Assembly (NCBI GenBank): GCA_965649265.1
Contig: CBFGKC010000010.1
Span: 1,292 to 65,291, forward strand
DNA from: a candidate division WOR-3 bacterium
GTDB taxonomy: Bacteria; Hydrothermota; Tepidihabitantia; B3-TA06
Length of the DNA: 64,000 bases
Direction of reading: 5' to 3'
The notes under the pieces were generated by a model, which saw only the letters and a program-made list of their open reading frames with translations, was not told the DNA's origin and ran no database searches. This document shows positions 10,621-56,127 of the stretch, in pieces; the stretch's first letter is position 1; each line of letters opens with the position of its first letter. A program made the translations under genes and the position numbers.

Positions 10621-11985
10621 CTAATCGGCGCGACCAGTGTTCAAGTTATCGTGGTGAAATCTCGGCCACGCTGAGGAAGCAAGCCCTTTCGATGAGCCGT
10701 AGACGGCGTAGACGTAACCGTCATATGAAGCAAAGTATACTGTTCCGTCATAGCCTATGGCCGGTCCTGATTTGATGCTGGTACCGGATTTTGTGTCATA
10801 CTCCCACTTCAGAGTCCCGTCTGAATTGATTGCATAAAAAATCCCGAAAGGCGTACCGAAATAAATCACACCGTCCGCCCCGACGGCAGGAGTAGAGGAA
10901 ACAAAGAATTCAGAGGTGGCGTCAAATCCCCAAAGCTTGCTTCCGTTCGCTGGATTTAAAGCATACAAATAACCTTCTGAAGAACCCAGATATACTGTGC
11001 CATCTTCAGCTATTGCCACCGAGGTCGTCACCGGTCCTGAGGTTTTGAACTCCCACTTCTTTTGACCCTGTGGACTATACGCATAGAGATAGGTATCATC
11101 TGAACCTACGTAAACGGTCCCATCTGATGCTATTGCCGGAGTCGTCTCAATTGACTCCTGCGTTTTCTCCGACCATTTTTTAGTTCCATTGGACGCACTC
11201 ACCGCGTAAAGATAACCTGCATCATCTCCAACGTAAACAGTCCCATCGGACGAGATGGATGGAGAACTCATAATCCTGTCGGTGGTTTTAAACTTCCATT
11301 TTACGCTGCCGTCCGACGGGTTAAGGGCGTAAAGATAATCTTCATACTCCTCAGTAACGGGCAAACGTTCCCTGCCTCCAAAGTATACCGTACCGTCCGC
11401 AGCAATTGCCGGCGAAGTGTGCACGTTGCTCGCGGTACCGAACTTCCACTTCAGAGTCCCGTCTGAATTGATGGCATAAAGGAAGTAGTCGTAAGATCCT
11501 ATATAGATGGTTCCATCCTCGGCAATCGCCGGTGATGAATGGAAAAAGGATCCGCTCGCATAGGCCCATAACAGGTTCCCGTCTGGATCGAACGCGTAAA
11601 GCGAATCCGAATATGAACCTATATACATCGTACCGGCAGAAGATATGGCAGGAGAGGATGCGACGAACGATTTTGTTCTGTACTTCCATTTCAATGTTCC
11701 AAGCATACCAAGTGTGGCTTCGACAATAAGTGTATCACCCATATCGACATTGACCTTTTTTTGCCATAAGCCGTAGCCTGATAGTTCGAGAGAAAGATCA
11801 TGTTCGCCTTTGGACACGTTTTCTAGAACGCAAGGAGTCTTGAGGGAGGTGAGACTGTCATCAATCGTGACCTGAGCCCCGGAGGGGGTCGAGATAATTG
11901 ATATTGCACCGGGCTTGTTTACGACACTGCAACTTGAGATTATCGCTAAACATACGAAGCAGATGAAAACCATTAAAACACGCAT
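10621..11985 (-). CDS. Lipoprotein with an N-terminal PEGA domain and a PQQ-like (BamB-like) beta-propeller
   Basis: Signal peptide with a Cys lipobox (AIISSCSV). PEGA-like segment STPSGAQVTIDD...GEHDLSLELSGYG. Repeated blade motifs of the type 'GTVY.GS.DG.LYA...G...W.F'. C-terminal WPRFHHDNLNTGRA. Confidence 0.7.
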   Translation of the reverse strand: MRVLMVFICFVCLAIISSCSVVNKPGAISIISTPSGAQVTIDDSLTSLKTPCVLENVSKGEHDLSLELSGYGLWQKKVNVDMGDTLIVEATLGMLGTLKWKYRTKSFVASSPAISSAGTMYIGSYSDSLYAFDPDGNLLWAYASGSFFHSSPAIAEDGTIYIGSYDYFLYAINSDGTLKWKFGTASNVHTSPAIAADGTVYFGGRERLPVTEEYEDYLYALNPSDGSVKWKFKTTDRIMSSPSISSDGTVYVGDDAGYLYAVSASNGTKKWSEKTQESIETTPAIASDGTVYVGSDDTYLYAYSPQGQKKWEFKTSGPVTTSVAIAEDGTVYLGSSEGYLYALNPANGSKLWGFDATSEFFVSSTPAVGADGVIYFGTPFGIFYAINSDGTLKWEYDTKSGTSIKSGPAIGYDGTVYFASYDGYVYAVYGSSKGLASSAWPRFHHDNLNTGRAD

Positions 11986-12082
11986 AACTCTCCTTGTTTA
12001 TGTCTGAGGCTACTCAGGGATTTGAAGATGTCAATAATGAGTTATACCTACTGACAGTCTCGGACACGCTTTTTTGCACAGT

Positions 12083-13858
12083 TCAATTAGCTCGTCCTGT
12101 ATTACCGTTATCGTGATGAAACCGGGGCCACGGACTCAAAGCAAGACCGTTGGAAGTACATCGAAGGGCGTAAAGCAACCCGTCACTTGATCCCACGATC
12201 AATGTCCCATCAGGAGCTATTGCCGGAGAGGACTTAACACTTCCGCCTGTCTTGTATCTCCAACATAATTCTCCGTTCGAACCTACAGCATAAACGTATC
12301 CCTCGGTCGAACCGAAATAAACGATGCCGTCTAAACCCAGGGTTACGGACGATTGAATGGGGCTTTGCGTAGAGTAACGCCATTTAAGCTCACCCGACGA
12401 CGAAAGAGCGTACAGGAAGGAATCGTTTGAACCGAAATAGACAGTGCCGTCCACGCCTATTGCAGGAGAACCCAGAATGCTTCCCCCCGTCTCATAGCTC
12501 CATTTTTTGACCCCATCGGACGTCAATGCGTACAAACAGCCGTCGTCGCATCCAAAGTAGATATTACCCTGACCGTCAATGGCAGGCGACGAGTTTAGAG
12601 CACCCTGCGCCTTGAATCGCCATTTCAAGCTTCCCTGGGGAGTCAGCGCATAGATATATTCATCCTGGCATCCAAAGAGTATCGTACCGTCCACAGCAAT
12701 GCAGGGGGATGCCGTGACCTTAGTCATATCCTCCTCACCTATCTCAAAAGCCCACTTCATGGTGCTGTCAGGATTTAGAGCGTAAAGATAATCAACCATT
12801 TCCAACGTCACGATTCTGCGAGCGCTGGCGCCTATATAGATGGTGCCGTCTACACCAATGGCGGGGGAGGTACTTATGTCGGTCGAGGAGCCGTATCTCC
12901 ATTCCAATGCACCGGAAGGATCGATGGAGTAAATGTAGTTGTCGCAAGAACCGAAGTAGATAGTGCCATCGGAAGCCACTGCAGGCGACGATTGAATGAA
13001 GAGACCTGTAGCATAGCTCCACTTTATATTGCCACCCTGGTTCAAGGCATAGGTGGAATTCGATAAGGAAGTTACGTACACTGTACCGTCGTCGGCTATC
13101 GCAGGCGAGGATTCAACTATACCGGCCGTATTGAAGGACCATAATTTTCTATTATCAAGATTAGCCTGAACTTCAGCAGTATCGTCGGTTTTGACTTCGA
13201 CCGTCGTATAATAATCCAGATAGTTCTCAAGGACTAACTTGATCGTATATGTTCCAGGTTTAAGTGAAGCAAAAGTGACGTTTGTGGTGCGACCGGTAAG
13301 ACTATCGTTGAGGTAGATGCTTGCTTTTTCAGGAGTCGATTTTATGGAGATCGCCCCCTGGTCCGGCCTGAGATTCAATTTAACCGTTTTCGTTTCACCC
13401 TTTACGAGAACGACGCTCGTATCGGCGTCAATGTACCCGTCAAGGACCAGGTGGATATTGTGGCTGCCCTCGCTGAGACTCGTAAAAAAGTAGTTCGTTT
13501 TGCGACCCGAGTCGGTTCCGTCTATCCATATCGTCGCTCCGCGCGGTTCGGATTGAACACTAAGACCTGTACTGTCTATTTTGAGTTTAGCCTCAACCAG
13601 TGCAGTGTCTCCCTCCTGGACATTGACGGTATCTGCGACAGATATGTAACCCGGATACTCTAAACGAATGATGTGTTCGCCTGGAGGTACATTTTCCAAG
13701 ATGCAGTTCGTCTGAAATCCTGTAAGACTGTCATCCATTATTACTTCCAACCCCTGGGGGGTCGATCTGACATCTATCCAACCAATGGTTTCTGTATCAA
13801 TACAATTCGATAACCCAAGGATAACGTAAACAATCAACAAGAACTTTTTAAGGTTCAC
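12083..13858 (-). CDS. Lipoprotein with three PEGA domains and a PQQ-like beta-propeller. It is a paralog of the preceding gene.
   Basis: Three segments of the form 'S.P.GA.I.IDG......T......L..G.H.I.L...GY' are followed by propeller blades. The C-terminus WPRFHHDNGNTGRAN is shared with the neighbouring gene. Confidence 0.7.
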   Translation of the reverse strand: MNLKKFLLIVYVILGLSNCIDTETIGWIDVRSTPQGLEVIMDDSLTGFQTNCILENVPPGEHIIRLEYPGYISVADTVNVQEGDTALVEAKLKIDSTGLSVQSEPRGATIWIDGTDSGRKTNYFFTSLSEGSHNIHLVLDGYIDADTSVVLVKGETKTVKLNLRPDQGAISIKSTPEKASIYLNDSLTGRTTNVTFASLKPGTYTIKLVLENYLDYYTTVEVKTDDTAEVQANLDNRKLWSFNTAGIVESSPAIADDGTVYVTSLSNSTYALNQGGNIKWSYATGLFIQSSPAVASDGTIYFGSCDNYIYSIDPSGALEWRYGSSTDISTSPAIGVDGTIYIGASARRIVTLEMVDYLYALNPDSTMKWAFEIGEEDMTKVTASPCIAVDGTILFGCQDEYIYALTPQGSLKWRFKAQGALNSSPAIDGQGNIYFGCDDGCLYALTSDGVKKWSYETGGSILGSPAIGVDGTVYFGSNDSFLYALSSSGELKWRYSTQSPIQSSVTLGLDGIVYFGSTEGYVYAVGSNGELCWRYKTGGSVKSSPAIAPDGTLIVGSSDGLLYALRCTSNGLALSPWPRFHHDNGNTGRAN

Positions 13859-14138
13859 TATATCTCCTGTTGCTTAGACTATAGGTTTAAATGGAGAATA
13901 CTTATCTAGACCGCACAAGTCAATAAAGAATTTGCCCTATACGATTCAACTGAGATATAATAATTAGCCTTGTGATTGCAAATAAGCATTTTAAATATCG
14001 ACAGAGCAACCATACTAAGGCCTTTTTCCGAACCCAGTAAATCTTCGCTCCTTGTATATTTCTCCCCAAAAGGGAATATATCCTGTGACTAATGGTATTA
14101 AAGGGCATGAAAGCAAACCTAAACTCAAGGAGGCTGGA

Positions 14139-16571
14139 ATGAAGCTCTCTAAACTTTCACTGATACTGCCTGCAGCGGCCGCACTGATGCTGAACTGCGG
14201 CAAGCTCCAGGCACAGGAGAATGGAGCGCAGGAAATCGCCTCTGGTGATATAACCCAGGGATCGCTTCGTCTCGTAAAGGACGGCAAGACATTAGAACTG
14301 CCGTTAAAGCATACAGATGTGGACGCGAAGATTACCGGCTACATCGCACGCGTAAAGGTAGTCCAGCACTACACCAACCCATACGACAAGCCTATCGAGG
14401 CCGTGTACGTCTTCCCGTTGCCCGAGAATTCGGCGGTGGACGACATGACCATGAAGATAGGTGATAAGATCATCAAGGGCGTCATAAAGAAACGCGAAGA
14501 GGCCAAACAAATATACGAACAGGCCAAACAGCAGGGCAAGACCGCAAGCCTCCTTGAACAGGAGAGGCCCAACATCTTCACGCAGTCGGTGGCCAACATT
14601 CTGCCCGGCGATGATATATATATAGAGATAAGTTACGTGCAGGATCTGAGGTACGATCACGGCACGTACGAATACCAGTTCCCGATGGTCGTGGGCCCCC
14701 GCTATATCCCGGGCGAGCAGTCCGGCAAGAACACAGGCGGCGGATGGTCGGACAACACCGACAGGGTGCCTGACGCGTCGAGGATCACTCCTCCCGTACT
14801 CAAGCCCGAATACCGTTCAGGCCACGACATAAGCCTGAAGCTGACGGTGGACGCCGGCGTTCCTATCCAGAACTTCACCTGCCCCTCCCACAAGATAAAG
14901 GAACTCTCAAAGACCGAGTCGAGCGTGACAGTTGAGATTGAGCAAGGTGACCAGATACCCAACAAGGATTTCATCTTCAGATACGACGTCGCCGGCAAGA
15001 AGCCGGAGTATGCGCTTCTGACACATGCCACTGCCGAAGGTGACGGCTACTTCATGCTCATGATCCAGCCCAAGGCCGAGTTCAAGATTGACGAGATCAC
15101 GCCGCGTGACCTGATCTTCGTACTCGACTGCTCGGGCTCAATGTCGGGCGAACCCATTGAGAAGGTCAAGGAAGCGATGCGGATGACCATCGAGAACATG
15201 CATCCCAAGGATTATTTCCAGATAATCAAGTTCTCGAACCAGCCCGAAAGCTTTGCCGAGGCGCCTGTCCCCAACACCCCGGAGAACGTAAAAAAGGCTC
15301 TTGCCTACATAGACCAGATTGACGGCAACGGCGGAACCGAGATGCTTTTGGGGGTGAATAAAGCATTAAGCTATCCCCGCAACCCCGAGCGCCGCAGGTT
15401 CGTGTTCTTCATGTCCGACGGCTACGTAGGCAACGAAGCCGAGATCGTCGCGGCCGTCGAACAGAACCGCGGAGACGCAAGGGTATTCTCAATGGGCGTC
15501 GGTTCGAGTCCCAACCGGTTCCTCATCAGCAAAATAGCGGAAGCAGGTCGTGGCTACGCCGTTTACTGCCGCCAGGACGAAGATCCCAAGAAGGCCGTGA
15601 CACTCTTCTACGAGAGAATAGCCAAGCCCTTCCTCATGGATATCGAAATTGACTGGGGCGGTCTCCAGGTCGCCGAGGTCTTCCCCAAGGAAGTACCCGA
15701 TCTTTTCGCGGGCCAGCCCGTCATCATCCACGGTCGCTACACTAAATCGGGTCAGGCCACGATAAAGATAAAGGGCAAGATCGCGGGCAAGCCCGTAGTC
15801 CAGGAAATTCCGGTCGTATTCCCTGCGGTTCAAAATGAGCATGATGTAATCGCAACGCTCTGGGCAAGAACCAAGATCGAGAAGCTCATGGATGACAGCT
15901 ACAACCAGGGCGAGACCGAGGACATCGTGAACGCGGTCACCGAACTGGCACTCAAGTACAAGATAATGAGCAAGTACACGTCCTTCGTTGCCGTTTCCGA
16001 GGAAGTCCGCAACGTCGGCGGCAAGCAAGAGACCGTACAGGTGCCGATCCCGATGCCCGAAGGCGTCTCCTATGAAGGCGTTTTCGGCGAGGAAGCCGAG
16101 ATGAGCCGCAGCATGGGCGGGATGGGCTACGCTCCTGTGCCTGCAAACGGCAAGCTCGCATCAAAGCAATACTATATCTCGCCAAGTACCACTGCGACCA
16201 AGACCAAGGACGAGAGTGATGACAAACCGCAAGAGATACCTGTATCGGGAACAGCTTCCTACGAAAATCTGACCATACTCGGCGGTCTCGATGAGGCTTC
16301 AGCAACCCAGGTCCTGGATGCGGCAAAGACGAAGATAGAATCGATGTACCTGCAGCACCTTCACCTGGATGCCTCGCTTGCGGGCCGGGTCGTCCTAAGC
16401 ATAACCCTCAAGGCTGACGGCTCCATAGATGACGTAACAGTAAAGTCCTCAACTACAGGAAACGACAAGTTTGACAAGGCCTTAAAGGCCGAAGTAAAGA
16501 AGCTGCGCTTCCCCGCTTCGTCGGACGGCGGCAAGGTAATAATCACCGTCGCATGGGTGTTTAATATCTAG
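14139..16571 (+). CDS. VIT domain + von Willebrand factor A domain protein with a C-terminal TonB_C-like domain, secreted
   Basis: Signal peptide MKLSKLSLILPAAAALMLNCG, with AGGAGG at the right distance before 14139. VIT region (TGYIARVKVVQHYTNPYDKPIEAVYVFPLPENSAV...). vWA MIDAS segment LIFVLDCSGSMSGEPI. The C-terminal region LAGRVVLSITLKADGSIDDVTVKSS...FDKALKAEVKKLRFP...VIITVAWVFNI has the TonB C-terminal-domain pattern. Confidence 0.75.
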   Translation: MKLSKLSLILPAAAALMLNCGKLQAQENGAQEIASGDITQGSLRLVKDGKTLELPLKHTDVDAKITGYIARVKVVQHYTNPYDKPIEAVYVFPLPENSAVDDMTMKIGDKIIKGVIKKREEAKQIYEQAKQQGKTASLLEQERPNIFTQSVANILPGDDIYIEISYVQDLRYDHGTYEYQFPMVVGPRYIPGEQSGKNTGGGWSDNTDRVPDASRITPPVLKPEYRSGHDISLKLTVDAGVPIQNFTCPSHKIKELSKTESSVTVEIEQGDQIPNKDFIFRYDVAGKKPEYALLTHATAEGDGYFMLMIQPKAEFKIDEITPRDLIFVLDCSGSMSGEPIEKVKEAMRMTIENMHPKDYFQIIKFSNQPESFAEAPVPNTPENVKKALAYIDQIDGNGGTEMLLGVNKALSYPRNPERRRFVFFMSDGYVGNEAEIVAAVEQNRGDARVFSMGVGSSPNRFLISKIAEAGRGYAVYCRQDEDPKKAVTLFYERIAKPFLMDIEIDWGGLQVAEVFPKEVPDLFAGQPVIIHGRYTKSGQATIKIKGKIAGKPVVQEIPVVFPAVQNEHDVIATLWARTKIEKLMDDSYNQGETEDIVNAVTELALKYKIMSKYTSFVAVSEEVRNVGGKQETVQVPIPMPEGVSYEGVFGEEAEMSRSMGGMGYAPVPANGKLASKQYYISPSTTATKTKDESDDKPQEIPVSGTASYENLTILGGLDEASATQVLDAAKTKIESMYLQHLHLDASLAGRVVLSITLKADGSIDDVTVKSSTTGNDKFDKALKAEVKKLRFPASSDGGKVIITVAWVFNI

Positions 16572-16585
16572 CCTCCCTCCTCGGC

Positions 16586-16697
16586 ATTGGCGCTAGAGCG
16601 CCGATGCCCGCGAAGTATAGCGCCGGAAGGTCAATCGGTGGCACCTTCCGGCGCTAATTTTTTAACCCCGAAGAATCACAGAGTGATTCTTCGGGGA
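16586..16697 (+). terminator. Cluster of three hairpins after the VIT-vWA gene. The middle one is a canonical rho-independent terminator.
   Basis: A perfect 14-nt palindrome GGCGCTAGAGCGCC at 16590-16603. A 13-bp stem hairpin AGCGCCGGAAGGT / ACCTTCCGGCGCT (16619-16655) followed by TTTTTT. A third hairpin CCCCGAAGAATCAC / GTGATTCTTCGGGG at 16666-16697. Confidence 0.6.
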
Positions 16698-16780
16698 CCC
16701 ATTTCATGGATTTTTAATTGCTTGACACTTCGCACTATCGGTTTATTATGAATACAGGAAAACTTGACTCGGAGGTTAGG

Positions 16781-17119
16781 ATGCGTTTTTCAAAAATCCA
16801 GGTGGCCTTGAGTGTACTCGTCGTAACTTCAGCTTGCATCACAACGAAAAATATTGAATCAACACCGGCCAACGGCTCAATTTCTGGCAAGGTTGTTGAT
16901 GCTTTAAACGGTCAACCATTACCAGGTGTTGGTGTGTACCTTATCGGAACAGATATTGGAATAGCCACTGACGATGAAGGTTATTATTTCTTACCTAACG
17001 TTCCTGTCGGAAACTATGATGTTGAATACTCTTTAATCGGATATGAAACTTCAATACTTAAAGTTGCCAAAGCTTCCGTAAAAAAAGGGACGACGGTTAA
17101 TGTGAGACTTATGCACTGA
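16781..17119 (+). CDS. Small secreted protein consisting only of a carboxypeptidase-regulatory-like (CarboxypepD_reg) domain
   Basis: GKVVDALNGQPLPGVGVYLIGTDIGIATDDEGYYFLPNVPVGNYDVEYSLIGYE matches the CarbopepD_reg beta-sandwich that is normally N-terminal in SusC-like TonB-dependent receptors. N-terminal hydrophobic segment ALSVLVVTSACIT. Confidence 0.65.
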   Translation: MRFSKIQVALSVLVVTSACITTKNIESTPANGSISGKVVDALNGQPLPGVGVYLIGTDIGIATDDEGYYFLPNVPVGNYDVEYSLIGYETSILKVAKASVKKGTTVNVRLMH

Positions 17120-17284
17120 GAAGTTGAGATAAGAATCCAAAACATAGGATCCAGGTAAGAAACCCCTTTTGCTTATCAGGTAATACAACTTTATTGAGGT
17201 TTAAGCGTTCACATACACTTAAAATAGAGGGAATAATCCTCCTTCCAACGGGTATTTACAGGTATAAAGTCAAAGGAGGAAGCC

Positions 17285-18229
17285 ATGAAAACCTTGACTC
17301 TTACCTTGAACCCCAGGGGGTGGGTGCAAACGCTGGGTGTGGCCACGCGAAACACTTTTCTTGGAATAGTCGACACGTTACGCAACCCCCGATTGCTCAT
17401 TGGAATCGGGGTATCGGTGTTGCTCCACGCCTCGCTTTTGTTATTCCTCGTGATTAACAAGGCCGGCAAAGCAATTGACGACAACGGTGATGAAGAACAA
17501 TGGATACCGGTGGTAGTCGGCGGCAATGAAAACCCCAAGGTAACAAGGATGCTGAAAGAACAAGGGGGATCTCCCTTCACAACACCTGATGATGTGGTGA
17601 ACAGACCTCTCCTTACGCCCACGAACCCGGAGTTTCAGGCAATGGTAAATATCCCCAAGGATGCAACCGACCTCAAAGAAATCATCACGGGCGACATGCT
17701 GGTCATAAACATCTCAAAGCAGAAAACGACGGAGGAAATACTCGCTTCAGAACCGGTGATCACGCTCCGCAAGGGCGTGGGCACCACAGGCAACACGCCC
17801 TTTATGATTCCGACGGACAACTCGGCGATAAAGGATTTGTCTTTGAACAACCCCCTTTCAAACACAAAGCCGATAATAAAGAATATTGGAACAGCCAACG
17901 ATAACAATACCGTTAACCAGAACAACGTCGTAACGAAAGGCGGAAGCTTCTCCATTGAAGGTGACCTTTCCGCCTCCGATATCGTCTCCTCAGTGATGCC
18001 AGAGTATCCCTACGTTGCCCGGGTAAAAGGACTGAGCAACGTCTATGTGAGCGTGGATTTCACGGTCAATTCACAGGGTAAGGTTTCTCAAACGATGATT
18101 GTCTCGCGCTCCTCCGGTTATCCGGAATGGGATGCAAACGTGAAGCAAGCTCTGTCAAAATGGATCTTCAAACCGACAGAAATACAAAGGCGCTCGGGCA
18201 GGATTACTTTCAGGTTCGTTCTGACTTAA
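17285..18229 (+). CDS. TonB-family energy transducer (N-terminal TM anchor, Pro-rich linker, C-terminal TonB_C domain)
   Basis: AGGAGG ribosome-binding site. TM segment LLIGIGVSVLLHASLLLFLVI. C-terminal region PEYPYVARVKGLSNVYVSVDFTVNSQGKVSQTMIVSRSSGYPEWDANVKQALSKWIFKP matches the TonB_C consensus. Confidence 0.75.
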   Translation: MKTLTLTLNPRGWVQTLGVATRNTFLGIVDTLRNPRLLIGIGVSVLLHASLLLFLVINKAGKAIDDNGDEEQWIPVVVGGNENPKVTRMLKEQGGSPFTTPDDVVNRPLLTPTNPEFQAMVNIPKDATDLKEIITGDMLVINISKQKTTEEILASEPVITLRKGVGTTGNTPFMIPTDNSAIKDLSLNNPLSNTKPIIKNIGTANDNNTVNQNNVVTKGGSFSIEGDLSASDIVSSVMPEYPYVARVKGLSNVYVSVDFTVNSQGKVSQTMIVSRSSGYPEWDANVKQALSKWIFKPTEIQRRSGRITFRFVLT

Positions 18230-18248
18230 CATGCAGAGTTCGGTTCGG

Positions 18249-18282
18249 ATAAGGCGGCATCTTGAATGCCGCCTTATTGTTA
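18249..18282 (+). terminator. Hairpin terminator after tonB
   Basis: aaggcggcat-cttga-atgccgcctt forms a 10-bp stem and is followed by attgtt. Confidence 0.45.
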
Positions 18283-29314: not shown

Positions 29315-30988
29315 TTAATGAACTAGTATCGTCTTACGGGTCAGACTGACCTGAGCGGATGTAAATTTCACAAAGTATACACCGTCAGGTAAATCACTCT
29401 TATCAAACGTGTATACGTGCATGCCTGCTTCGAGTTTGCCTTTGTCCAGAGACAATTTTCGGCTCCCTGTCACATCATACAGTACAACCTGACCGTCCAC
29501 ATCCTTTGGAAGCGATAGAAGAATCTTTGATCCTGTAACGGACAGATCCAGTTTCAGAGGAACAACTTTTTCCTCGATTCCGGCTTTTACGGCATGGATC
29601 GAATCAGTGATCATATCGTTGGCAGGAACAGAGTCATCGGGCAGCCACGTTTTGAAAGCAATATGATACCAGGCATTCTCATAAGAAAGAACCTTCCAGG
29701 GCACAAAGCTTACCTGGGCTTCTTCATCTACATTAAGAGGGCCAACATTAGCCACCCCGTGGTAGACGTCAAGACCTGAGTATGTAATGGCACAAGTGAC
29801 AGAGCAAGCGGCAACAGTGTTGCCCTGATTGAGGACCGTCACGGCAGGAATATATGATGAATCCGGATTGACGTTTTTGGGCGGAGCCACTATAACCGTC
29901 GGCAACACATCCTTGATAATACGAGAAGCATACTTGAGATTTCCGTTTGTGACATCATAGTACGAAATGTGGGGATATGTCAAAGCCTTTTTGTAAGTCA
30001 AAGCAATTGAGGTATACTGACCTACATCTGCCGTAGTGTCCACGGTTTCCGTATGCCAGCCCAGATAGTCCTGCGAGTAGCCATATTTAAGATTTCCATT
30101 GGAAGCGTCGTAATAGCTAACATAGGTCGATCCCAGTTGTTGTGATCCGTATTGACCAACCCCGGGAGTGTTGTCTATAACATCGATAGCCCAGGCTGAT
30201 CCGGTCCAGCGAGCATACTTAAAGTAGGTATGAGTCCTATCGTAGTAGCTGATAAAAGGAACATTGCCGTTTGCAGTATCAATAGCTATATCCGGCCAAA
30301 GCCCAACGTCGCCTGTCGTATCGACACTGGCTACAACCCATGCACCTGAAACAAGATGCGCGTACTTCAAATTGCCGTTAGTCGAATCGTAGTAAGCGAT
30401 ATGTGGATTTCCGGCTGGATCGAGGGCTATTGAGGTGTATGTTCCGACGCCGCCTGTATCGACGGTGTCACGGGACCATTGAGTACCCAGCGGCCTTGCG
30501 TATAAAAGCATGCCCGCCGTGGCATCAAAATAAGATATGTGGGCTATGTCCTGATTGTTTTGCACGCCTAAAACGATGTCACAGCCCAACCCGACGTTAT
30601 CAGGACCGGGATGCGGAATACCCACAACCCAGTCTCCTGTAGTATTCTTGGTCGCCCACTTGAGATGGCCGTTCAACGCGTCGTAGTAAACAATCTGCGG
30701 AAGCCCGGTCACTGAACCAATAGCAAGAGAACTAAAAGAGCCCACACCGCCAAGACCGCTGTTTTTGTCGGCAAACTCGGAGACCCATGCAGAACCATTC
30801 CATGTGGCGTATTTCAAATATCCGCTGTCGGCATAGAAATAAGCTACATGCGGCATGTTCTTTGAATCAATCACGAGAGAGGAATATTGTCCTACATCAC
30901 CTGTTGTATCAACATCTTCCAAGTACCAAGCCTGGCCAAATGCGGCTACAACAGTCACTGCGATAATAAAACCTATCCACTTTTTCAC
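29315..30988 (-). CDS. Secreted repeat protein with a T9SS-type C-terminal sorting domain
   Basis: Signal peptide. At least six units of about 40 aa of the form '..YTSIALD..GNPHIAYYD.TNGNLKYA....G.W'. The C-terminal 80 aa end ...DGVYFVKFTSAQVSLTRKTILVH, which matches the Por_Secre_tail pattern. Confidence 0.7.
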   Translation of the reverse strand: MKKWIGFIIAVTVVAAFGQAWYLEDVDTTGDVGQYSSLVIDSKNMPHVAYFYADSGYLKYATWNGSAWVSEFADKNSGLGGVGSFSSLAIGSVTGLPQIVYYDALNGHLKWATKNTTGDWVVGIPHPGPDNVGLGCDIVLGVQNNQDIAHISYFDATAGMLLYARPLGTQWSRDTVDTGGVGTYTSIALDPAGNPHIAYYDSTNGNLKYAHLVSGAWVVASVDTTGDVGLWPDIAIDTANGNVPFISYYDRTHTYFKYARWTGSAWAIDVIDNTPGVGQYGSQQLGSTYVSYYDASNGNLKYGYSQDYLGWHTETVDTTADVGQYTSIALTYKKALTYPHISYYDVTNGNLKYASRIIKDVLPTVIVAPPKNVNPDSSYIPAVTVLNQGNTVAACSVTCAITYSGLDVYHGVANVGPLNVDEEAQVSFVPWKVLSYENAWYHIAFKTWLPDDSVPANDMITDSIHAVKAGIEEKVVPLKLDLSVTGSKILLSLPKDVDGQVVLYDVTGSRKLSLDKGKLEAGMHVYTFDKSDLPDGVYFVKFTSAQVSLTRKTILVH

Positions 30989-47872: not shown

Positions 47873-48069
47873 TTTTCAATAAAAACATCCAAAATCGAAA
47901 TCATTGATAAAGAATTCAACGGCACCAATGCAACGCATTCACGATCTTTAACCTCACTTGTTTATGCGTCAACTTTTCGATTGTGAAGAAATTGTTTTTT
48001 TCTAAATCAAGCTTGACCCTTAGTTTTTTTTGCATAAACTTTCTTTCAAAATCCGCCAAGGAGGCAGCG

Positions 48070-50391
48070 ATGTTCAAAAAAATGTTTTTCATTATAGGGT
48101 GTTTAACCCTGCTCATCCCATTTGTATTAGGCGCACAAGTGTGGGAGCATGAACAGAGATTGACCAATGAACCGTCGGCATCTTACACAGGCTCCAACAA
48201 CGCCTGGGGCGTTGCGGCATCGGGCGATACCGTACACGTCGTATTCTACGACTACCGCGACGGCGACAACGAAATATTCTACAAGCGCTCATTTAATTGC
48301 GGCGCCACGTGGAGCCCGGACACCCAGCTCACCAGCGCGGACAGAACGTCTGAGAGACCGTCGGTAGCTGTAAAAGGGCCGAACGTTCATATCGTGTGGC
48401 TTGATAACCGCGACTATAATTTTGATATATATTACAAGCGTTCCACAAGCGCGGGCGCAAGCTGGGGACCGGATACAAGACTGACAACCCATGACAGCAT
48501 CTCGGCATATCCTTCGATGGCCGTACAGGATACCATACTCCATGTTGTGTGGTTCGACGACCGCGACTCCAGCTATGAAATATACTACAAGCGCTCCCTT
48601 AACAACGGGACGACATGGGGCTCCGATATAAGACTGACCGCAGATGACAACGACACATCGAATTTTGCCAGTGTAGCGGCACAGGGAACGAACGTCCACG
48701 TCGTATGGTTCGATACCCGTGACGGAAACAGCGAGATATATTATAAGCGCTCGGCAAATAACGGGACAGACTGGAGCGTGGATACGAGGCTCACCACCGA
48801 CAACGCCGTATCCCAATTCCCTTCGATAGCCGCGGAAGGCTCAAGCGTTCATGTCGTCTGGCAGGACAATCGCGACGGCAACCGTGAGATATACTACAAG
48901 CGCTCCCTCGACGGTGGCACAACGTGGGGACAAGACGTAAGATTGACCAATGCCGCACAGGAATCGGTTTATCCTTCAATAGCAGTACGAGACTCTAACG
49001 TTTATATCGTCTGGAAGGATCAGCGTGACGGCAACGAGGAGATATACTACAAATGTTCGACCGACAACGGGACAACGTGGCGTTCTGACACCAACCTTAC
49101 CAGCGATGCAGGTAGTTCGAAATCCTCCTCGATAGCGGCAGATGGCCCGAACGTCCACGTAATCTGGCAGGACAATCGCGACGGGAACCCTGAGATATAC
49201 TACAAGCTTGGCGGCCTGATGCAGCCCGACAACATGGTCAAGAACTCGTATGAGTCTACCTATACTGGCGACGGGGTATACAATGAGGATGGATCAGACC
49301 AGACTAGCATCCAGACCGTTAGCGCGGGCGATACAGCCGTCTACCACATAAGGATAGAAAACGACGGAGGTTTGGTAGATACGATAACGGTTACAGGCGA
49401 CACCGGCGCAGACGGCTGGGAGGTCAAATACTACGATGCCTTGACCGCCGGGGCTGAAATCACGTCGGACATCACAGGTGCAGGCTGGTCCACCGGCGAA
49501 CTAAACCCCGGGGAGTACATGGAGATAAGAGTAGAAGTTATTACGGACGACAGCCTACCGGGCGATTCAACATACGATGTGCTGATTACTTCAAAATCGG
49601 ACCGCGATACAACAAAGCTCGATGCGGTTCTGACCCGGACAGTCATCCAGTCGGGCTTTCAACCGGACAACCAGATAAAAAACATGGAGGAAACAACTTA
49701 CATCGGCGACGGCGTATATAATCTGGACGGTACAGACCAGACGAAGTCACAAACTGCCGGGGCCGGCGATACCGTGGTCTACCACATAAAGATAGAAAAC
49801 GACGGCAACCTCCCGGATACATTCATCCTAGTGGGAACTGCCGGTAACGCAGGCTGGACGATTCGCTACTTCAATACCCTGACTGCCGGGACCGAGATAA
49901 CGTCCGACATCACAGGCTCGGGCTGGAACAGCGGCGAACTCGATCCTGAGGACACGACCGATATAAGGGTAGAGGTTACCTCCCCCTCCTCTGCGACAAC
50001 AGGCACTTCCTATGACGTACTGCTAACGACGACATCCGCTTCCGACAATACACGCAAGGACGCGGTCAAGGCTACGTCAACAGTAGGAACCAGTAATGTG
50101 GAAGAAAAGATTGAGCCGTTCATCAATTCGTTAAACGTGCATCCCCTTTCGGATGTCAAGATAACAGTCTCCTGCACCCTTGCCGAAATGGGAACTATTG
50201 AGCTTTCCGTATACGATGCATCCGGACGACTGGTCAAGACCCTCGCAACGGGCAATGAGAACCAGGGCAGGCACGAGTATATATGGAACGGACTTGATGA
50301 TTCAGGAAAGAAGGTCGCGAATGGTGTCTACTTTATACACCTGTCAGCTGAGAAAGAAGTGTTAAAAGGGCGAATCACGATAGTTAAATAA
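48070..50391 (+). CDS. Secreted protein with an 8-repeat BNR/Asp-box beta-propeller, two CARDB-like domains and a T9SS C-terminal sorting domain
   Basis: A ribosome-binding site AAGGAGG and the signal peptide MFKKMFFIIGCLTLLIPFVLGA. Eight repeats of about 52 aa each carry S-x-D-x-G-x-T-W (RSLDGGTTWG, CSTDNGTTWR and others) and the segment 'VHVVW.D.RDGN.EIYYKRS'. Two segments of the form 'GDTAVYHIRIENDG.L.DT..V.G' follow. The C-terminus reads ...GVYFIHLSAEKEVLKGRITIVK. Confidence 0.75.
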   Translation: MFKKMFFIIGCLTLLIPFVLGAQVWEHEQRLTNEPSASYTGSNNAWGVAASGDTVHVVFYDYRDGDNEIFYKRSFNCGATWSPDTQLTSADRTSERPSVAVKGPNVHIVWLDNRDYNFDIYYKRSTSAGASWGPDTRLTTHDSISAYPSMAVQDTILHVVWFDDRDSSYEIYYKRSLNNGTTWGSDIRLTADDNDTSNFASVAAQGTNVHVVWFDTRDGNSEIYYKRSANNGTDWSVDTRLTTDNAVSQFPSIAAEGSSVHVVWQDNRDGNREIYYKRSLDGGTTWGQDVRLTNAAQESVYPSIAVRDSNVYIVWKDQRDGNEEIYYKCSTDNGTTWRSDTNLTSDAGSSKSSSIAADGPNVHVIWQDNRDGNPEIYYKLGGLMQPDNMVKNSYESTYTGDGVYNEDGSDQTSIQTVSAGDTAVYHIRIENDGGLVDTITVTGDTGADGWEVKYYDALTAGAEITSDITGAGWSTGELNPGEYMEIRVEVITDDSLPGDSTYDVLITSKSDRDTTKLDAVLTRTVIQSGFQPDNQIKNMEETTYIGDGVYNLDGTDQTKSQTAGAGDTVVYHIKIENDGNLPDTFILVGTAGNAGWTIRYFNTLTAGTEITSDITGSGWNSGELDPEDTTDIRVEVTSPSSATTGTSYDVLLTTTSASDNTRKDAVKATSTVGTSNVEEKIEPFINSLNVHPLSDVKITVSCTLAEMGTIELSVYDASGRLVKTLATGNENQGRHEYIWNGLDDSGKKVANGVYFIHLSAEKEVLKGRITIVK
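48180..49210 (+). repeat. Intragenic tandem repeat with a period of about 156 bp, encoding the BNR blades
   Basis: Recurrent ...gatatactacaagcgctc... segments, and the protein-level repeat. Confidence 0.5.
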
Positions 50392-52314: not shown

Positions 52315-55300
52315 TCAATGGACTATTATGAATTTCTCGTTAACCGACGTCATCGTCTCGGTCATGGTCGCATCAAGACTCTTGGCGGTCAAACGGTAGA
52401 TGTAAACACCGTTTGGAAGGGGCGTTCCGTCTGCGTCAAGACCGTTCCACGAATATGAGGAAAAACCAGCGGCGAACGACTGAGCGGGCAGTTTTCTTAC
52501 AAGACGACCGCTTACGGTGAATATCTGTATCGAGACCTCGGCCGCCGTATTCAATTCAAAAGTGAAATCTGCGGAACTCGAAACCGGGTTAGGATATACG
52601 AGAGGGGTAATAATTTCCGGCCTCGAAACGAATGAGGTATGAAGTGTCAATTCATATTTTGTCGTATTTCGAAGGTTATCCACGGCATACAGAGTGAGGG
52701 CGTTATCCTCTTTCGAGAACTTGATTGGCAAACTCGCCATTCCTGTCGAGGCAATTGAACTGTCGGTAACATCATAACTGAAATAAGATGAAAGACTTAT
52801 TGCGTCCTCATCGTTAATGACGAGACTCAAGGGATGCCCGCCGCCAAGGCCCACTCCGGGAAGCCCCGTAAGATTGATTCCGGAAGGATCTTCAAGCTCT
52901 ATCTCAAGATCGAACGATGGAGTCGGAATGGTATCTCCATCGAATATTTCTTCTCCTGCGACGTAAAACCTCGCGGAAGGACCCTTGTGATCACTTGATG
53001 AGGTTGACCCGGCGACAACGCCTAAAGAGTCAAACCGGAAGGTGTACAACGAATCTTCATCACGGCAAGAAATATACCAGTAAGCCGAATCTCCTTCTGC
53101 GATGCCGGTCGGAACTATGAACTTCAAGATAGTTTGACCTGCGTCAAGCTCACCTGAGGCCTCGTAAAGTGGTTCGCCCTTGGCGTAATAAATTCTGTAA
53201 TCATAAACTTGAGGTATTTTTTTAACCCAGCTTCCATATGCGGATGCAAACCATTTACCCTGGGAAAGGCCGGCGTCAAAGGTTATCTGAGCCGTGTCAC
53301 CCGTAACGAAATCTGGAGGTATCGAAGTCACATTCTTCGCCGTGGGAAACAGGAGTTCAACCCCAGGGTCGCCGAAAAGTGTATACAGGGGATCTAAAGG
53401 CAATACGGCAAAAAGAAGGTCGCCGGTATTTGCATTTTTAAGATATCTGAAGGTATTCGCCAGCGTGTTAGCCACGTTTTGGTTGTTGGATGCGCTCGTT
53501 CCTTTGGTCGCTGCGATTGTCGCTATGGCACCTCCAGAGCCGCGCACGAGTTCTTCCGCAATGCATTCCCACCGCGTGTCCTCGAATCGGCCTACGCCGC
53601 ATGAACAGAAGAGACCGAACGGAAGCCTGTTTTCATTATTAACGTACGTGACGTCGGTATTTCTGAAAACAGCTTCATGAGTCAGCTGGCTGCCATTCCC
53701 ATGCCCGAAGAAAAGCCACAAATAGGCTCCCTGATCGAGAGCGGAAATCAAGGCGTCGTGCGCGCCCGGCTTAGTGCTTCCAACGAAGGAGTAATCGCTC
53801 AAATAGACCTTTACCGGATCGTACTCAGGATATAAAAGCGTAGCGAAACTCTCACATGCCGAGATGTGATTATCTATACCGTCCTCTTTAGCCGGCGAGC
53901 CCTCGTAATAATCGTCGGACAGCAGAAGAAGCCTTGAGGCCCAGGCTTCCTTGGGGGTCGATTCATATTTTTTTATCTTGTCAAGAATATCAGATGCCTC
54001 ATGAGCGTCCCTCGCCGTAATCCGGGCGATTGACATTTCAGGATGGTATGTGACAGGGTTATCGAAGTCAACAAACCACGAATCCAGCGCGGGTCCACGC
54101 ACTTCGGTAACATTAGGGTCAAGCAGGTAATCCTGGGTGTGAACTAGGAAATACTCCGGAACAGTAAGTTTCAAATTGTTTTTGTAATCGTAAGTGCCGT
54201 CACCCAGAATGAGCGCATACCGCGGTCTCGAGTCACCTTTTTTGTACGCATAAGATAGAAAATGTCTTACGGCCTGGGGCTCGGCAAGACCGAATCCGAA
54301 ATCTCGAATTATGTCCTTAAGGTTCACTGTCTTGATCGCGGTAGCGGAAACGCCGGATATCTTGAGGTTTTGACTTCTGTAACTCTCGTATGCCTTTGCG
54401 GCACTCATATTTTCGTCGGTGGAAAGAATGATGTAGTCCACGGACCAGTCTTCGGTCCATAATTCGCCGGGCTGCTCTTTTTCCAGGGCGGGGGTCTTGA
54501 GACGACGCTCATCCGCGACCCACAAAGGAAGATCCTTCGTAATTCTCGGATTAAGGAAAAGATTCCCGTTCTTTGTTTCCCAATTCGTCAACAGAATTGG
54601 ATTTGCCGGATCACTCACGTCAAAGAGGTAAGGAGTAGTTTTGAGGCCGCTAAAGCGGTACGAAAGATTTCCCTTTAATTCTACCCAGTAGGGATTCTGA
54701 TCAAAGGAAAGCTCTCTTTCAACAACAAGCCGCATCCAGTCCGGGTAAAAATCCTGCTGCCCCTCCCCCGTCACTTCGATGACCAAAGGCAATTCATCCT
54801 GCAACACAACATCCGGATCGATAGTGGTATATCTCGGATTCGCGATCACGCCGGAAGGCACCAAGGGTACGTAAAGAAGTGTATCTGTATTCGCCAGCGC
54901 GCGAAATCCCGCACCTGTATTAATGGAGTAGGCTTGCAGGGTAAAGGTATCTATCTTTGTTACACCCTCAAGGTCTAAAATAAATGTATCGGAGGCGATC
55001 GTCGAACTCTTTTGGATATCTTCCCAAAGCCACAAAAGACCCGAGCGCGAAGGGCACTCGTGATCTTCTTCAAAATGAAGAACGCTCATCCCTTCGGTCA
55101 AAGGAGTATCCTGAGAAGGATATGCAGGTCTTGTTTGAAGCCTTTTTCCTTTTCCCGCGCCCCAAGTAAGCCAGTAAACATTTTCCTTTACATAAGGATT
55201 CACCTCAAAGGTCCGTTCGGAGAAATTCCAGTGGTTTGCACCCTGCGCGAAAAGAATTATGTAGTCAACCCCGGATAACCTGCCGTCATCCTCGCCCTGG

Positions 55301-56127
55301 ACGAAACAAGGCAGCTCGGAAAGAGTATCGGGAAAAGTATCCTCCGGGGTCAACCTTGAAGGGTAAAGGATCCTTATTGTTGAAGGATCAATCTGGGTAG
55401 GATCTACACCGATTTTCTTGAGATCACCCACACCTATCCTGTATACCCCGTCCTCTGGTATGGAAATCTTTACCCAATTCGAAGACTGGGCAAAAGGATT
55501 TGCCCCTGCGGCAAAAGTCGATGAGGAGAGTTTCCACCCCATACACTGATCATAATTGATGATACTGTTTTTGTAAATTTCGCTGAATTGATCATTTGAG
55601 ATGTCATGGTAACCTTCATATGGCTCGAACGAGATGTTGAGCGTAACCCCATCATAGAGAACGAGGGTCTGGTTACCGGAGGAGTATTTAAGCGGCGTAA
55701 CCTCTATCACCGCTACCCTGAAATCGCGCCATGTCGTTACATGGTAATAAACCGGCTTCAGAGTGTCAGCCCACTGAGGAAATGAATTTGCGCCCGTCCC
55801 AATACCAGGAATCTCGTAATTCTCAGGAATCACACCTTTTAACTCCCTTGAAGTTCCCAGGGTGTAACTGATTTTGACATCGCCCTCGGGCGGTAGCCCC
55901 ACAACCATCCTGTAGCGCGGCAGTGCAGGTCCACCCGGTTCGCCTATCATATAGGCGTCGCTGAAAAGCTCGGCAAGATTCGCTTTTGCATAAGATTGCA
56001 GAAGATTTGTACCTTGAGGAGCACTTAACTTTATCTGAACCCCTCGGTTACTCTGACTTGTAATACTGGGTCCTGCAAAAGCTGCAGTTGCAGCAAGTAA
56101 GATAAGGGTTTGAAACCTTCTCATCAT
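52315..56127 (-). CDS. Large secreted protein of 1270 aa, a probable gingipain-like (C25/clostripain-like) cysteine peptidase, with a T9SS C-terminal sorting domain
   Basis: Signal peptide MMRRFQTLILLAATAAFA. Central His...Cys arrangement LWLFFGHGNGSQL ... FGLFCSCGVG, consistent with a caspase-like CD-clan peptidase. The C-terminal region GVYIYRLTAKSLDATM...KFIIVH fits the T9SS CTD pattern. Confidence 0.5.
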   Translation of the reverse strand: MMRRFQTLILLAATAAFAGPSITSQSNRGVQIKLSAPQGTNLLQSYAKANLAELFSDAYMIGEPGGPALPRYRMVVGLPPEGDVKISYTLGTSRELKGVIPENYEIPGIGTGANSFPQWADTLKPVYYHVTTWRDFRVAVIEVTPLKYSSGNQTLVLYDGVTLNISFEPYEGYHDISNDQFSEIYKNSIINYDQCMGWKLSSSTFAAGANPFAQSSNWVKISIPEDGVYRIGVGDLKKIGVDPTQIDPSTIRILYPSRLTPEDTFPDTLSELPCFVQGEDDGRLSGVDYIILFAQGANHWNFSERTFEVNPYVKENVYWLTWGAGKGKRLQTRPAYPSQDTPLTEGMSVLHFEEDHECPSRSGLLWLWEDIQKSSTIASDTFILDLEGVTKIDTFTLQAYSINTGAGFRALANTDTLLYVPLVPSGVIANPRYTTIDPDVVLQDELPLVIEVTGEGQQDFYPDWMRLVVERELSFDQNPYWVELKGNLSYRFSGLKTTPYLFDVSDPANPILLTNWETKNGNLFLNPRITKDLPLWVADERRLKTPALEKEQPGELWTEDWSVDYIILSTDENMSAAKAYESYRSQNLKISGVSATAIKTVNLKDIIRDFGFGLAEPQAVRHFLSYAYKKGDSRPRYALILGDGTYDYKNNLKLTVPEYFLVHTQDYLLDPNVTEVRGPALDSWFVDFDNPVTYHPEMSIARITARDAHEASDILDKIKKYESTPKEAWASRLLLLSDDYYEGSPAKEDGIDNHISACESFATLLYPEYDPVKVYLSDYSFVGSTKPGAHDALISALDQGAYLWLFFGHGNGSQLTHEAVFRNTDVTYVNNENRLPFGLFCSCGVGRFEDTRWECIAEELVRGSGGAIATIAATKGTSASNNQNVANTLANTFRYLKNANTGDLLFAVLPLDPLYTLFGDPGVELLFPTAKNVTSIPPDFVTGDTAQITFDAGLSQGKWFASAYGSWVKKIPQVYDYRIYYAKGEPLYEASGELDAGQTILKFIVPTGIAEGDSAYWYISCRDEDSLYTFRFDSLGVVAGSTSSSDHKGPSARFYVAGEEIFDGDTIPTPSFDLEIELEDPSGINLTGLPGVGLGGGHPLSLVINDEDAISLSSYFSYDVTDSSIASTGMASLPIKFSKEDNALTLYAVDNLRNTTKYELTLHTSFVSRPEIITPLVYPNPVSSSADFTFELNTAAEVSIQIFTVSGRLVRKLPAQSFAAGFSSYSWNGLDADGTPLPNGVYIYRLTAKSLDATMTETMTSVNEKFIIVH

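Follow-up and report, generated by a model that had tools for sequence, protein, structure and literature searches.

A VIT-vWA protein with a TonB-type C-terminal tail, encoded beside a solo SusC-type domain and a TonB paralog in a candidate division WOR-3 bacterium

Introduction

The locus described here lies in a 64,000-nucleotide stretch of DNA (the window) from a candidate division WOR-3 bacterium (GenBank assembly GCA_965649265.1, contig CBFGKC010000010.1, positions 1,292 to 65,291 of the forward strand), where it was noticed in a first-pass annotation made from the sequence alone. It consists of three co-directional open reading frames (ORFs) at 14139-16571, 16781-17119, and 17285-18229, each preceded by a Shine-Dalgarno-like sequence. 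These ORFs are referred to below as genes 1, 2, and 3, and they and the features assigned to them lie on the forward (+) strand. Gene 1 encodes a predicted secreted protein with VIT and von Willebrand factor A (vWA) domains that ends in a domain resembling the C-terminal domain (CTD) of TonB, gene 2 a lipoprotein-like solo domain of the type that forms the N-terminal extension (NTE) of SusC receptors, and gene 3 a TonB paralog. The locus thereby places a TonB-CTD-type docking domain on a soluble VIT-vWA protein beside a stand-alone SusC-type NTE and a TonB paralog. We consider it slightly more probable than not that the gene 1 product is a periplasmic scaffold, similar to the heavy chains of human inter-alpha-inhibitor (ITIH), which is docked via its TonB-CTD-type tail and might be coupled to the neighboring TonB.

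TonB-type CTDs have usually been studied as the tip of an inner-membrane transducer; here, one is found on a soluble ITIH-like protein with a metal-ion-dependent adhesion site (MIDAS), and a search of the wider family portrays this CTD as a very widespread modular docking domain that often occurs in tandem. The locus is also a natural experiment on the SusC NTE, which in this clade makes up a small protein by itself, its gene lying immediately upstream of that for a TonB. Deletion of the NTE abolishes growth on levan in Bacteroides. One published suggestion is that the SusC NTE provides specificity toward particular TonB paralogs (PMC7782687), and a stand-alone NTE beside a TonB gene bears on this idea. 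If the three products interact, the locus would support a role of the NTE in TonB-paralog selection and would reveal what bacterial VIT-vWA proteins anchor to. If they do not, it represents ordinary envelope genes of an uncultured lineage.

The VIT-vWA Body of Gene 1

Gene 1 (14139..16571) encodes an 810-amino acid (aa) protein, as judged from its ORF, ribosome binding site (RBS), and domain matches. A signal peptide predicted by reading the sequence (MKLSKLSLILPAAAALMLNCGKLQA|QE; 14139..14216) is followed by a VIT domain at aa 56-166 (14304..14636; PF08487, 141 bits) and a vWA domain with a complete MIDAS at aa 324-476 (15108..15566; PF13768 (VWA_3) and PF00092 (VWA)). The MIDAS residues D330, S332, and S334 (D330-x-S-x-S334), T400, and D427 were invariant across 45 homologs. 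The domain search and the invariant MIDAS bear out the first-pass description of gene 1 as a secreted 810-aa VIT and vWA protein. An AlphaFold2 model based on the 45 homologs had a mean pLDDT (predicted local distance difference test) score of 78.7. It contained an ordered body at aa 44-635 and a confident CTD, connected by a disordered linker of ~60 aa (aa 640-699; 16056..16235) in which pLDDT fell below 50 at aa 640-644 and 652-699. The top structural match of the body in the PDB was human inter-alpha-inhibitor heavy chain 1 (ITIH1, 6fpy; E = 3e-34, TMt 0.67). Thus, the protein is ITIH-like in possessing a VIT domain, followed by a vWA domain with a MIDAS, within an overall fold like that of ITIH1. 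The ratio of nonsynonymous to synonymous divergence (dN/dS) of the gene was ~0.08 relative to the ortholog in L001 (L- and P-numbers are labels for the loci and proteins, respectively, of relatives).

Apart from the signal-peptide-like N-terminus, no lipobox, transmembrane (TM) segment, or CTD of the type IX secretion system (T9SS) was found in gene 1, the product of which ends in ...VAWVFNI. Because the Cys residue of the signal peptide is not conserved among homologs, cleavage would be of the signal-peptidase-I type. The presence of a signal peptide without a lipobox, membrane helix, or T9SS sorting domain leads us to infer that the product is a soluble periplasmic protein. A T9SS-exported surface adhesin was considered and rejected, as gene 1 lacks the T9SS CTD that other proteins encoded in the window carry. 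The adhesin role that had been entertained on first pass is unlikely for the same reason.

The TonB-CTD-Type Tail

The tail of gene 1 (aa 705-809; 16251..16565) was assigned to the TonB-CTD type, AgmX/PglI subtype, on the basis of hidden Markov model (HMM) matches, its structural model, and fold matches. Residues 717-809 matched Pfam TonB_C (PF03544) with a marginal score of 26.3 bits against a cut-off of 24.6, and the tail matched TIGR01352 at 33.9 bits (cut-off 27.1). The match to NCBIfam NF033768, the AgmX/PglI C-terminal domain, was stronger (62.3 bits, cut-off 40) and spanned the full model (1-92), such that the tail fits this subtype better than it fits canonical TonB_C. When modeled alone, the tail reached a pLDDT of 95.1 and displayed a β-α-β-β-α-β topology, in agreement with the TonB/TolA CTD fold, which is typified by a three-stranded sheet packed on two helices. 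All 17 of the 17 best Foldseek matches in the PDB were CTDs of TonB, TolA, FusB, or HasB, the best by coverage being the Helicobacter pylori TonB-CTD 6sly (TMq 0.63). At the sequence level, the tail profile retrieved TonB CTDs from Salmonella and E. coli among PDB sequences (E = 4e-7 to 1e-5). Relatives of the tail were collected by phmmer among the retrieved homologs and by a full HMMER profile search; of the 46 top-scoring library proteins that were scanned, 44 were Pfam TonB_C proteins. The proposal made on first pass that gene 1 ends in a TonB-like domain is upheld by these threshold-passing scores and by the match to solved TonB CTDs. A recent origin of the tail as a copy of the gene 3 CTD was rejected, as profile-profile comparison of the two with hhalign gave only a weak alignment (74% probability, 19% identity).

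The combination of a VIT-vWA body with this tail was considered unusual in the first-pass annotation, an assessment that did not survive wider searches. Among 45 homologs covering nearly the full length of gene 1, which came from several candidate phyla, the NF033768 tail was present in 33 and TIGR01352 in 27. The nearest named relatives are from metagenome-assembled genomes (MAGs) of candidate division WOR-3, TA06, and Stahlbacteria, and further VIT-vWA-tail proteins were found in Aegiribacteria, Fermentibacteria, and Myxococcota. The tail profile itself retrieved 17,004 representative clusters at E ≤1e-3 and 1,964 at E ≤1e-10. Its best matches (P0124-P0272) contain two to seven tandem TonB_C-type copies, unlike classical TonB with its single CTD, and domain partners across the family include BlaR1-type M56 peptidase, TPR, protein kinase, and ExbD. 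Judging from these domain assignments, the fusion is real but not rare, being common among uncultured bacteria; it is a recurrent and uncharacterized architecture. No paper describing it was found in literature searches on VIT, vWA, and TonB together.

Close VIT-vWA homologs carry alternative C-terminal tails, including DUF4159, SLH, HEAT repeats, and DUF1559. In terms of predicted domains, a conserved VIT-vWA head is paired with exchangeable modules at the C-terminus, and several of these modules are recognized anchors in the envelope. The TonB-type tail is most plausibly a swappable localization module, since this head is also found joined to SLH and sortase-type tails.

Two variants of the architecture deserve mention. 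In an Aegiribacteria MAG, a single ORF (L050:6560-9337) encodes a signal peptide, CarboxypepD_reg, VIT, and vWA domains, and a TonB-like tail, joining the domain types of gene 2 and gene 1 with CarboxypepD_reg in the N-terminal position. In L013 (L013:6989-10808), a VIT-vWA-tail gene is followed by a gene for an extracytoplasmic function (ECF)-type sigma factor (Sigma70_r2) and then by one for a 294-aa membrane protein, which begins with a Cys-rich (anti-sigma-like) segment, continues with a TM helix, and resembles TonB_C at its C-terminus.

Gene 3, a TonB Paralog

Gene 3 (17285..18229) encodes a 314-aa TonB paralog that matched TIGR01352 at 50.5 bits (cut-off 27.1) and PF03544 at 35.8 bits. 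Its membrane helix (17393..17455) contains an SxxxH motif, S44-x3-H48, and its TonB_C domain (17999..18223) contains a YP motif; S44, H48, and YP were invariant in seven orthologs. The corresponding residues of E. coli TonB are S16 and H20. In addition, the CTD matched that of Pseudomonas aeruginosa TonB (6fip; E = 3.7e-5). The gene is conserved in seven lineages. With a TonB_C domain above cut-off, a single N-terminal TM helix bearing SxxxH, and the YP motif, gene 3 is by its sequence features a genuine inner-membrane TonB paralog, and its earlier designation as a full TonB was correct.

Gene 2 and the Variable Middle Gene

Gene 2 (16781..17119) encodes a 112-aa lipoprotein-like protein composed of a solo CarboxypepD_reg domain of the SusC NTE type, an assignment supported by Pfam, NCBIfam, and PDB sequence matches. 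The domain scored 62.3 bits with CarbopepD_reg_2 (PF13715) and 60.6 bits with CarboxypepD_reg (PF13620), and matched positions 3-62 of the receptor family TIGR04056 with a score of 36.7 versus a cut-off of 368. Its best PDB sequence match was the NTE of the TonB-linked receptor 9gbc (E = 4.5e-6), and the NTEs of 6ytc and 6sli/RagA were matched as well. These findings agree with the first-pass view of gene 2 as a secreted, solo domain of the SusC-NTE type. The signal peptide contains a lipobox-like Cys after the h-region (VVTSAC), where the L001 counterpart has a canonical VVSGC, and the product is probably a lipoprotein. No Ton box, plug, or 22-strand barrel was found in gene 2. Relative to the L001 counterpart (L001:12645-13004), the proportion of synonymous differences (pS) was 0.40 for gene 2, compared with 0.65 for gene 1 and 0.78 for gene 3. 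Nonsynonymous divergence of gene 2 exceeded that of gene 1 despite the lower pS, although the sample is small.

The gene in the middle position varies among relatives. In the window and L001, it consists of the receptor NTE alone. In L003, the NTE is followed by a linker, the peptide NTTITGEEIERMPVDDIEQVLENLVPGAVSTSP, and a stop codon, whereas L088 and L111 have lost the NTE and kept the peptide, and L108 has no middle gene. The plug-start-like peptide genes of L003 (L003:10652-11356), L088 (L088:9582-9962), and L111 (L111:5136-5513) all lie between the VIT-vWA-tail gene and the TonB gene. The peptide family comprises secreted proteins of ~125-234 aa, with or without a CarboxypepD_reg domain, that share a near-identical end (ITxTGEEIExMPVDxIEQVLENLVPGxVxTSP). 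P0122 and P0123 exemplify its conservation: their NTEs are ~30% identical to that of L003, yet they end in the same C-terminal peptide. In three proteins, the peptide matched positions 7-36 of Pfam Plug below threshold (E = 0.014-0.064). The plug-start peptide of the relatives left no trace in the window by tblastn, nor in or after gene 2 in any reading frame. The occurrence in relatives of a middle gene made of a SusC-type NTE and a plug-start-like peptide strengthens the first-pass theme of a locus assembled from pieces of the machinery of TonB and TonB-dependent receptors.

Conservation of the Gene Neighborhood

Genes 1 and 3 are neighbors in seven WOR-3/TA06-like lineages (the window, L001/2, L108/9, L088, L003/4, L111, and L110), among which gene 1 identity is 65-79%. 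All three genes occur together in L001, L003, and L110, and so the arrangement highlighted on first pass is conserved in related genomes. Part of this conservation is simple inheritance, since L001 and L003 also share unrelated syntenic flanking genes with the window (TatD, kinase, methyltransferase, and TPR). The pair of genes 1 and 3 nevertheless persists through rearrangement, because the flanks differ in three other lineages: L110 has its TatD gene on the opposite side, a second VIT-vWA-tail paralog as an insertion, and CinA as the downstream gene; L111 differs on both flanks; and L108 carries an insertion of four genes after gene 3. The linkage of genes 1 and 3 is limited to one clade. 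The inserted L110 paralog (L110:9761-12643) is a 960-aa VIT-vWA protein with a TonB-like tail, located between the gene 1 ortholog and the CarboxypepD_reg and TonB genes.

No ExbB, ExbD, or TonB-dependent receptor family turned up when the large ORFs between 7.2 and 64 kb of the window were scanned with Pfam, in line with the first-pass remark on the vicinity of the locus. The first 7 kb were judged indirectly from an annotated L001 region with which they appear syntenic, and which has no ExbB, ExbD, or receptor.

Transcription Signals

A sigma-70-like promoter candidate for gene 1 (TTGCCC-18-TATAAT; 13932..13961) rests on a consensus match only and may not be of the type used in the host phylum. 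After gene 1, three strong hairpins follow in series (16583-16608, 16612-16661, and 16666-16696; minimum free energy -76.6 kcal/mol, z = -10.2), the second of which precedes a U-run, TAATTTTTT, and constitutes an intrinsic-terminator candidate. A 35-nucleotide core of this hairpin (16620-16654; GCGCCGGAAGGTcaatcggtggcACCTTCCGGCGC), loop included, is identical in L001:12482-12516. Because this identity is maintained in a comparison where proteins are 79% identical and synonymous sites are otherwise saturated, gene 1 is probably its own transcription unit. The hairpin-rich spacer between genes 1 and 2 gave no match to a known RNA in Rfam.

Sigma-70 consensus matches also mark promoter-like sites before gene 2 (TTGACA-16-TATTAT, 11/12; 16722..16749) and gene 3 (10/12; 17208..17237). 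Terminator-like hairpins had been reported between the genes on first pass; they are present between genes 1 and 2 and after gene 3, but the spacer between genes 2 and 3 has no significant structure (z = -0.12). The hairpin after gene 3 is a 13-bp stem (18248..18278) between the convergent gene 3 and TatD gene (spacer z = -2.5) and is a candidate bidirectional terminator.

Comparison with Known Systems

The closest parallel for the tail is found in the Agl-Glt gliding system of Myxococcus xanthus, in which the CTDs of GltG (AgmX) and GltJ (PglI) belong to the same family (NF033768). These domains resemble the gene 1 tail in having a TonB-CTD-like fold that caps a long disordered segment and in acting as protein-docking modules. 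The TonB-CTD-like domains of GltG and GltJ were modeled binding GltD, the sheet of GltG is extended by a parallel strand from GltF, and the reported template for GltJ was the same H. pylori TonB-CTD, 6sly, that best matched the tail (PMC11761067). The Agl-Glt system also employs a vWA adhesin, CglB, whereas in gene 1 the vWA domain shares a polypeptide with the tail. In other respects, the systems differ. GltG and GltJ reside in the inner membrane, have FHA or ZnR/GYF domains in the cytoplasm, and are coupled to a TolQR-like motor, while gene 1 begins with a cleavable signal peptide and is unanchored. Furthermore, the domain consensus of the GltG/GltJ family includes a Cys pair that gene 1 lacks. 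The GltG equivalog model NF033760 aligned with just the tail and gave 49.6, where the cut-off is 650; with this score and without FHA, ZnR/GYF, or TM helix, gene 1 was rejected as a GltG/GltJ protein. Within the window, neither glt nor agl genes were found.

With TonB, the tail shares PF03544, TIGR01352, and the CTD fold, but gene 1 lacks the N-terminal membrane helix, SxxxH, YP, and Pro-rich spacer of TonB and cannot couple to ExbBD. With ITIH1 (6fpy), gene 1 shares the VIT-vWA body over ~620 residues and an intact MIDAS at ~17% sequence identity. ITIH proteins are eukaryotic and extracellular, with the C-terminus attached covalently to glycosaminoglycan, in contrast to the noncovalent TonB-CTD-type tail of gene 1.

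A family of marine proteobacterial sortase targets, TIGR03788, is defined by an LPXTG signal at the C-terminus and by a sortase gene alongside. The gene 1 body matched positions 3-597 of this model at 552.2 bits, essentially at the cut-off of 551.65, and in both cases a VIT-vWA head is equipped for anchoring at its C-terminal end. However, gene 1 has no LPXTG or hydrophobic tail, its host is not a proteobacterium, and no sortase gene was present among the genes neighboring gene 1, and it was therefore rejected as a sortase target. BatA-E proteins are membrane-anchored vWA proteins whose genes share an operon with those of TPR and MoxR-type proteins. The likeness of gene 1 to BatB (3ibs) is confined to the vWA fold, and a Bat assignment was rejected given that gene 1 has no TM helix and no Bat-like genes among its neighbors. 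Gene 2 is the domain (PF13715) that constitutes the NTE of SusC/RagA receptors, such as the Bt1763 NTE (6ytc), without the plug body or 22-strand barrel. In SusC, the NTE precedes a linker and then the plug start, the same order as in relatives of gene 2.

Interpretation and Alternatives

In the mechanism that we propose, gene 1 would consist of a soluble periplasmic VIT-vWA body, a flexible tether of ~60 residues, and a CTD of the TonB/TolA superfamily. The MIDAS head would bind an acidic ligand in the periplasm, and the tail would dock onto an envelope partner through strand addition, capturing a short (Ton-box-like) β-strand motif in it and thereby positioning the head. Docking by strand addition is proposed by analogy with TonB, TolA, and GltG. 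The tail would be a docking module; gene 1 cannot be an energy transducer, because it has no membrane anchor. Mimicry of TonB had been suggested on first pass; in the sense of energy transduction, it was rejected in view of the cleavable signal peptide and the missing anchor. The gene 3 TonB would be powered by ExbBD encoded elsewhere in the genome. The three products may contact one another physically; their coupling is possible, and the conserved peptide of the relatives is suggestive in this regard.

Several observations weigh against a docked scaffold that is linked to its neighbors. The Foldseek E-values of the tail are modest (1e-3 to 1e-2, reaching 5e-2 across the 17 best matches). The tails of gene 1 and its orthologs lack the YP motif of TonB. 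Gene 1 is also missing the Cys pair (CYE...C) in the consensus of the 46 top library relatives, in place of which it has MYL...KAL. Given these two absences, the ligand of the gene 1 tail may differ. A predicted extra N-terminal strand (aa 705-714) in the model could itself fill the edge at which strand addition would occur. With respect to the neighbors, the conserved terminator stands between genes 1 and 2, gene 2 of the window is without the conserved C-terminal peptide, and its dN/dS of ~0.4 relative to L001 indicates relaxed constraint. In addition, neither the trio nor the pair was found around gene 1 orthologs of 63% (L005) and ~50% identity (L006, L090, and L092), and no recurrent TonB, Exb, or TonB-dependent receptor family appeared among 85 neighboring ORFs at nine distant loci.

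In a competing explanation that we regard as unlikely, though deserving of serious weight, the neighborhood is coincidental: gene 1 would encode a stand-alone periplasmic vWA protein, gene 3 a housekeeping TonB, and gene 2 would be the decaying remnant of a TonB-dependent receptor gene. In its favor, lineages differ in which parts of the receptor N-terminus they retain, some having none, and gene 2 is under relaxed constraint. Distant orthologs manage without these neighbors, and the most similar relatives, L001 and L003, share unrelated flanking genes too. On the other hand, coincidence does not sit well with the retention of the pair in L110, L111, and L108 amid rearranged flanks, and the far better conservation of the middle gene's peptide than of its NTE points to selection rather than decay. 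Even in the window, gene 2 is still preceded by a promoter-like site and an RBS, encodes a lipobox-like Cys, and shows a dN/dS below 1.

In a more ambitious but doubtful picture, which takes up the first-pass proposal of an envelope-spanning complex, the three products constitute a novel, barrel-less complex of the TonB type, with the inner-membrane TonB (gene 3) and gene 1 both engaging gene 2 and force or signal passing between them. An envelope-spanning complex of this kind is speculation. It would explain why the gene 1/gene 3 pair survives rearrangement of its flanks in seven lineages, and why the middle gene is always derived from the N-terminus of a TonB-dependent receptor, with a 32-aa peptide that is near-invariant in relatives whose NTEs are ~30% identical. 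The fusion of CarboxypepD_reg to a VIT-vWA-tail protein in L050, and the ECF sigma factor and TonB_C-like membrane protein encoded after such a gene in L013, are also in keeping with it. Against it, the genes are split by a terminator and separate promoter-like sites, L108 has no middle gene, and the window and L001 have no peptide. The Plug matches (E = 0.014-0.064) are below threshold, scans of the window yielded no ExbBD, distant gene 1 orthologs stand alone, and CarboxypepD_reg is a promiscuous domain.

A less probable proposal concerns the tail itself, which might be a noncovalent peptidoglycan anchor, the counterpart of SLH and sortase/LPXTG tails, with the neighboring TonB being irrelevant. 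Homologs with the same body do bear wall-anchoring tails (SLH and the sortase-target family TIGR03788), and TonB CTDs have been proposed to bind peptidoglycan. Nevertheless, the partners on record for the CTDs of TonB, TolA, and GltG are protein strands, and a peptidoglycan anchor leaves the linkage of genes 1 and 3 in this clade unexplained. Most improbable of all is that the WOR-3/TA06 TonB paralog, the TonB-CTD-tailed vWA protein, and a barrel-less mini-receptor (a SusC NTE with or without the conserved plug-start/Ton-box-like peptide) form a TonB module without an outer-membrane barrel, in which both TonB-type domains would act on the small protein's peptide, either competitively or cooperatively, and an orphan SusC NTE would have gained a TonB-directed function. 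A periplasmic ITIH-like scaffold docked by its tail remains the reading that we prefer.

Other Features of the Window

Upstream of gene 1 and divergent from it are two paralogs identified by Pfam that combine PEGA with a BamB/PQQ-like β-propeller (10621-11985 and 12083-13858, both on the - strand). A PEGA/propeller-type gene adjoins the gene 1 ortholog in L110, is nearby in L003, and is absent from L001, and PEGA was seen twice among neighbors of distant gene 1 orthologs. It is uncertain whether these genes (10621..13858) belong with genes 1-3.

Elsewhere in the window, large exported proteins with T9SS-type CTDs (FlgD_ig or Por_Secre_tail) are encoded at 52315-56127 (-), 47983-50391 (+), and 29315-30988 (-), among them a 1270-aa C25 gingipain-like peptidase and a BNR/DUF11 protein. 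These predicted domains indicate a T9SS in this WOR-3-like organism. A 951-aa protein encoded at 59117-61972 (-) joins a Peptidase_MA_2-like region and a PD40 repeat to an Omp85 barrel at its C-terminus, a combination that represents an unusual architecture within the Omp85 family.

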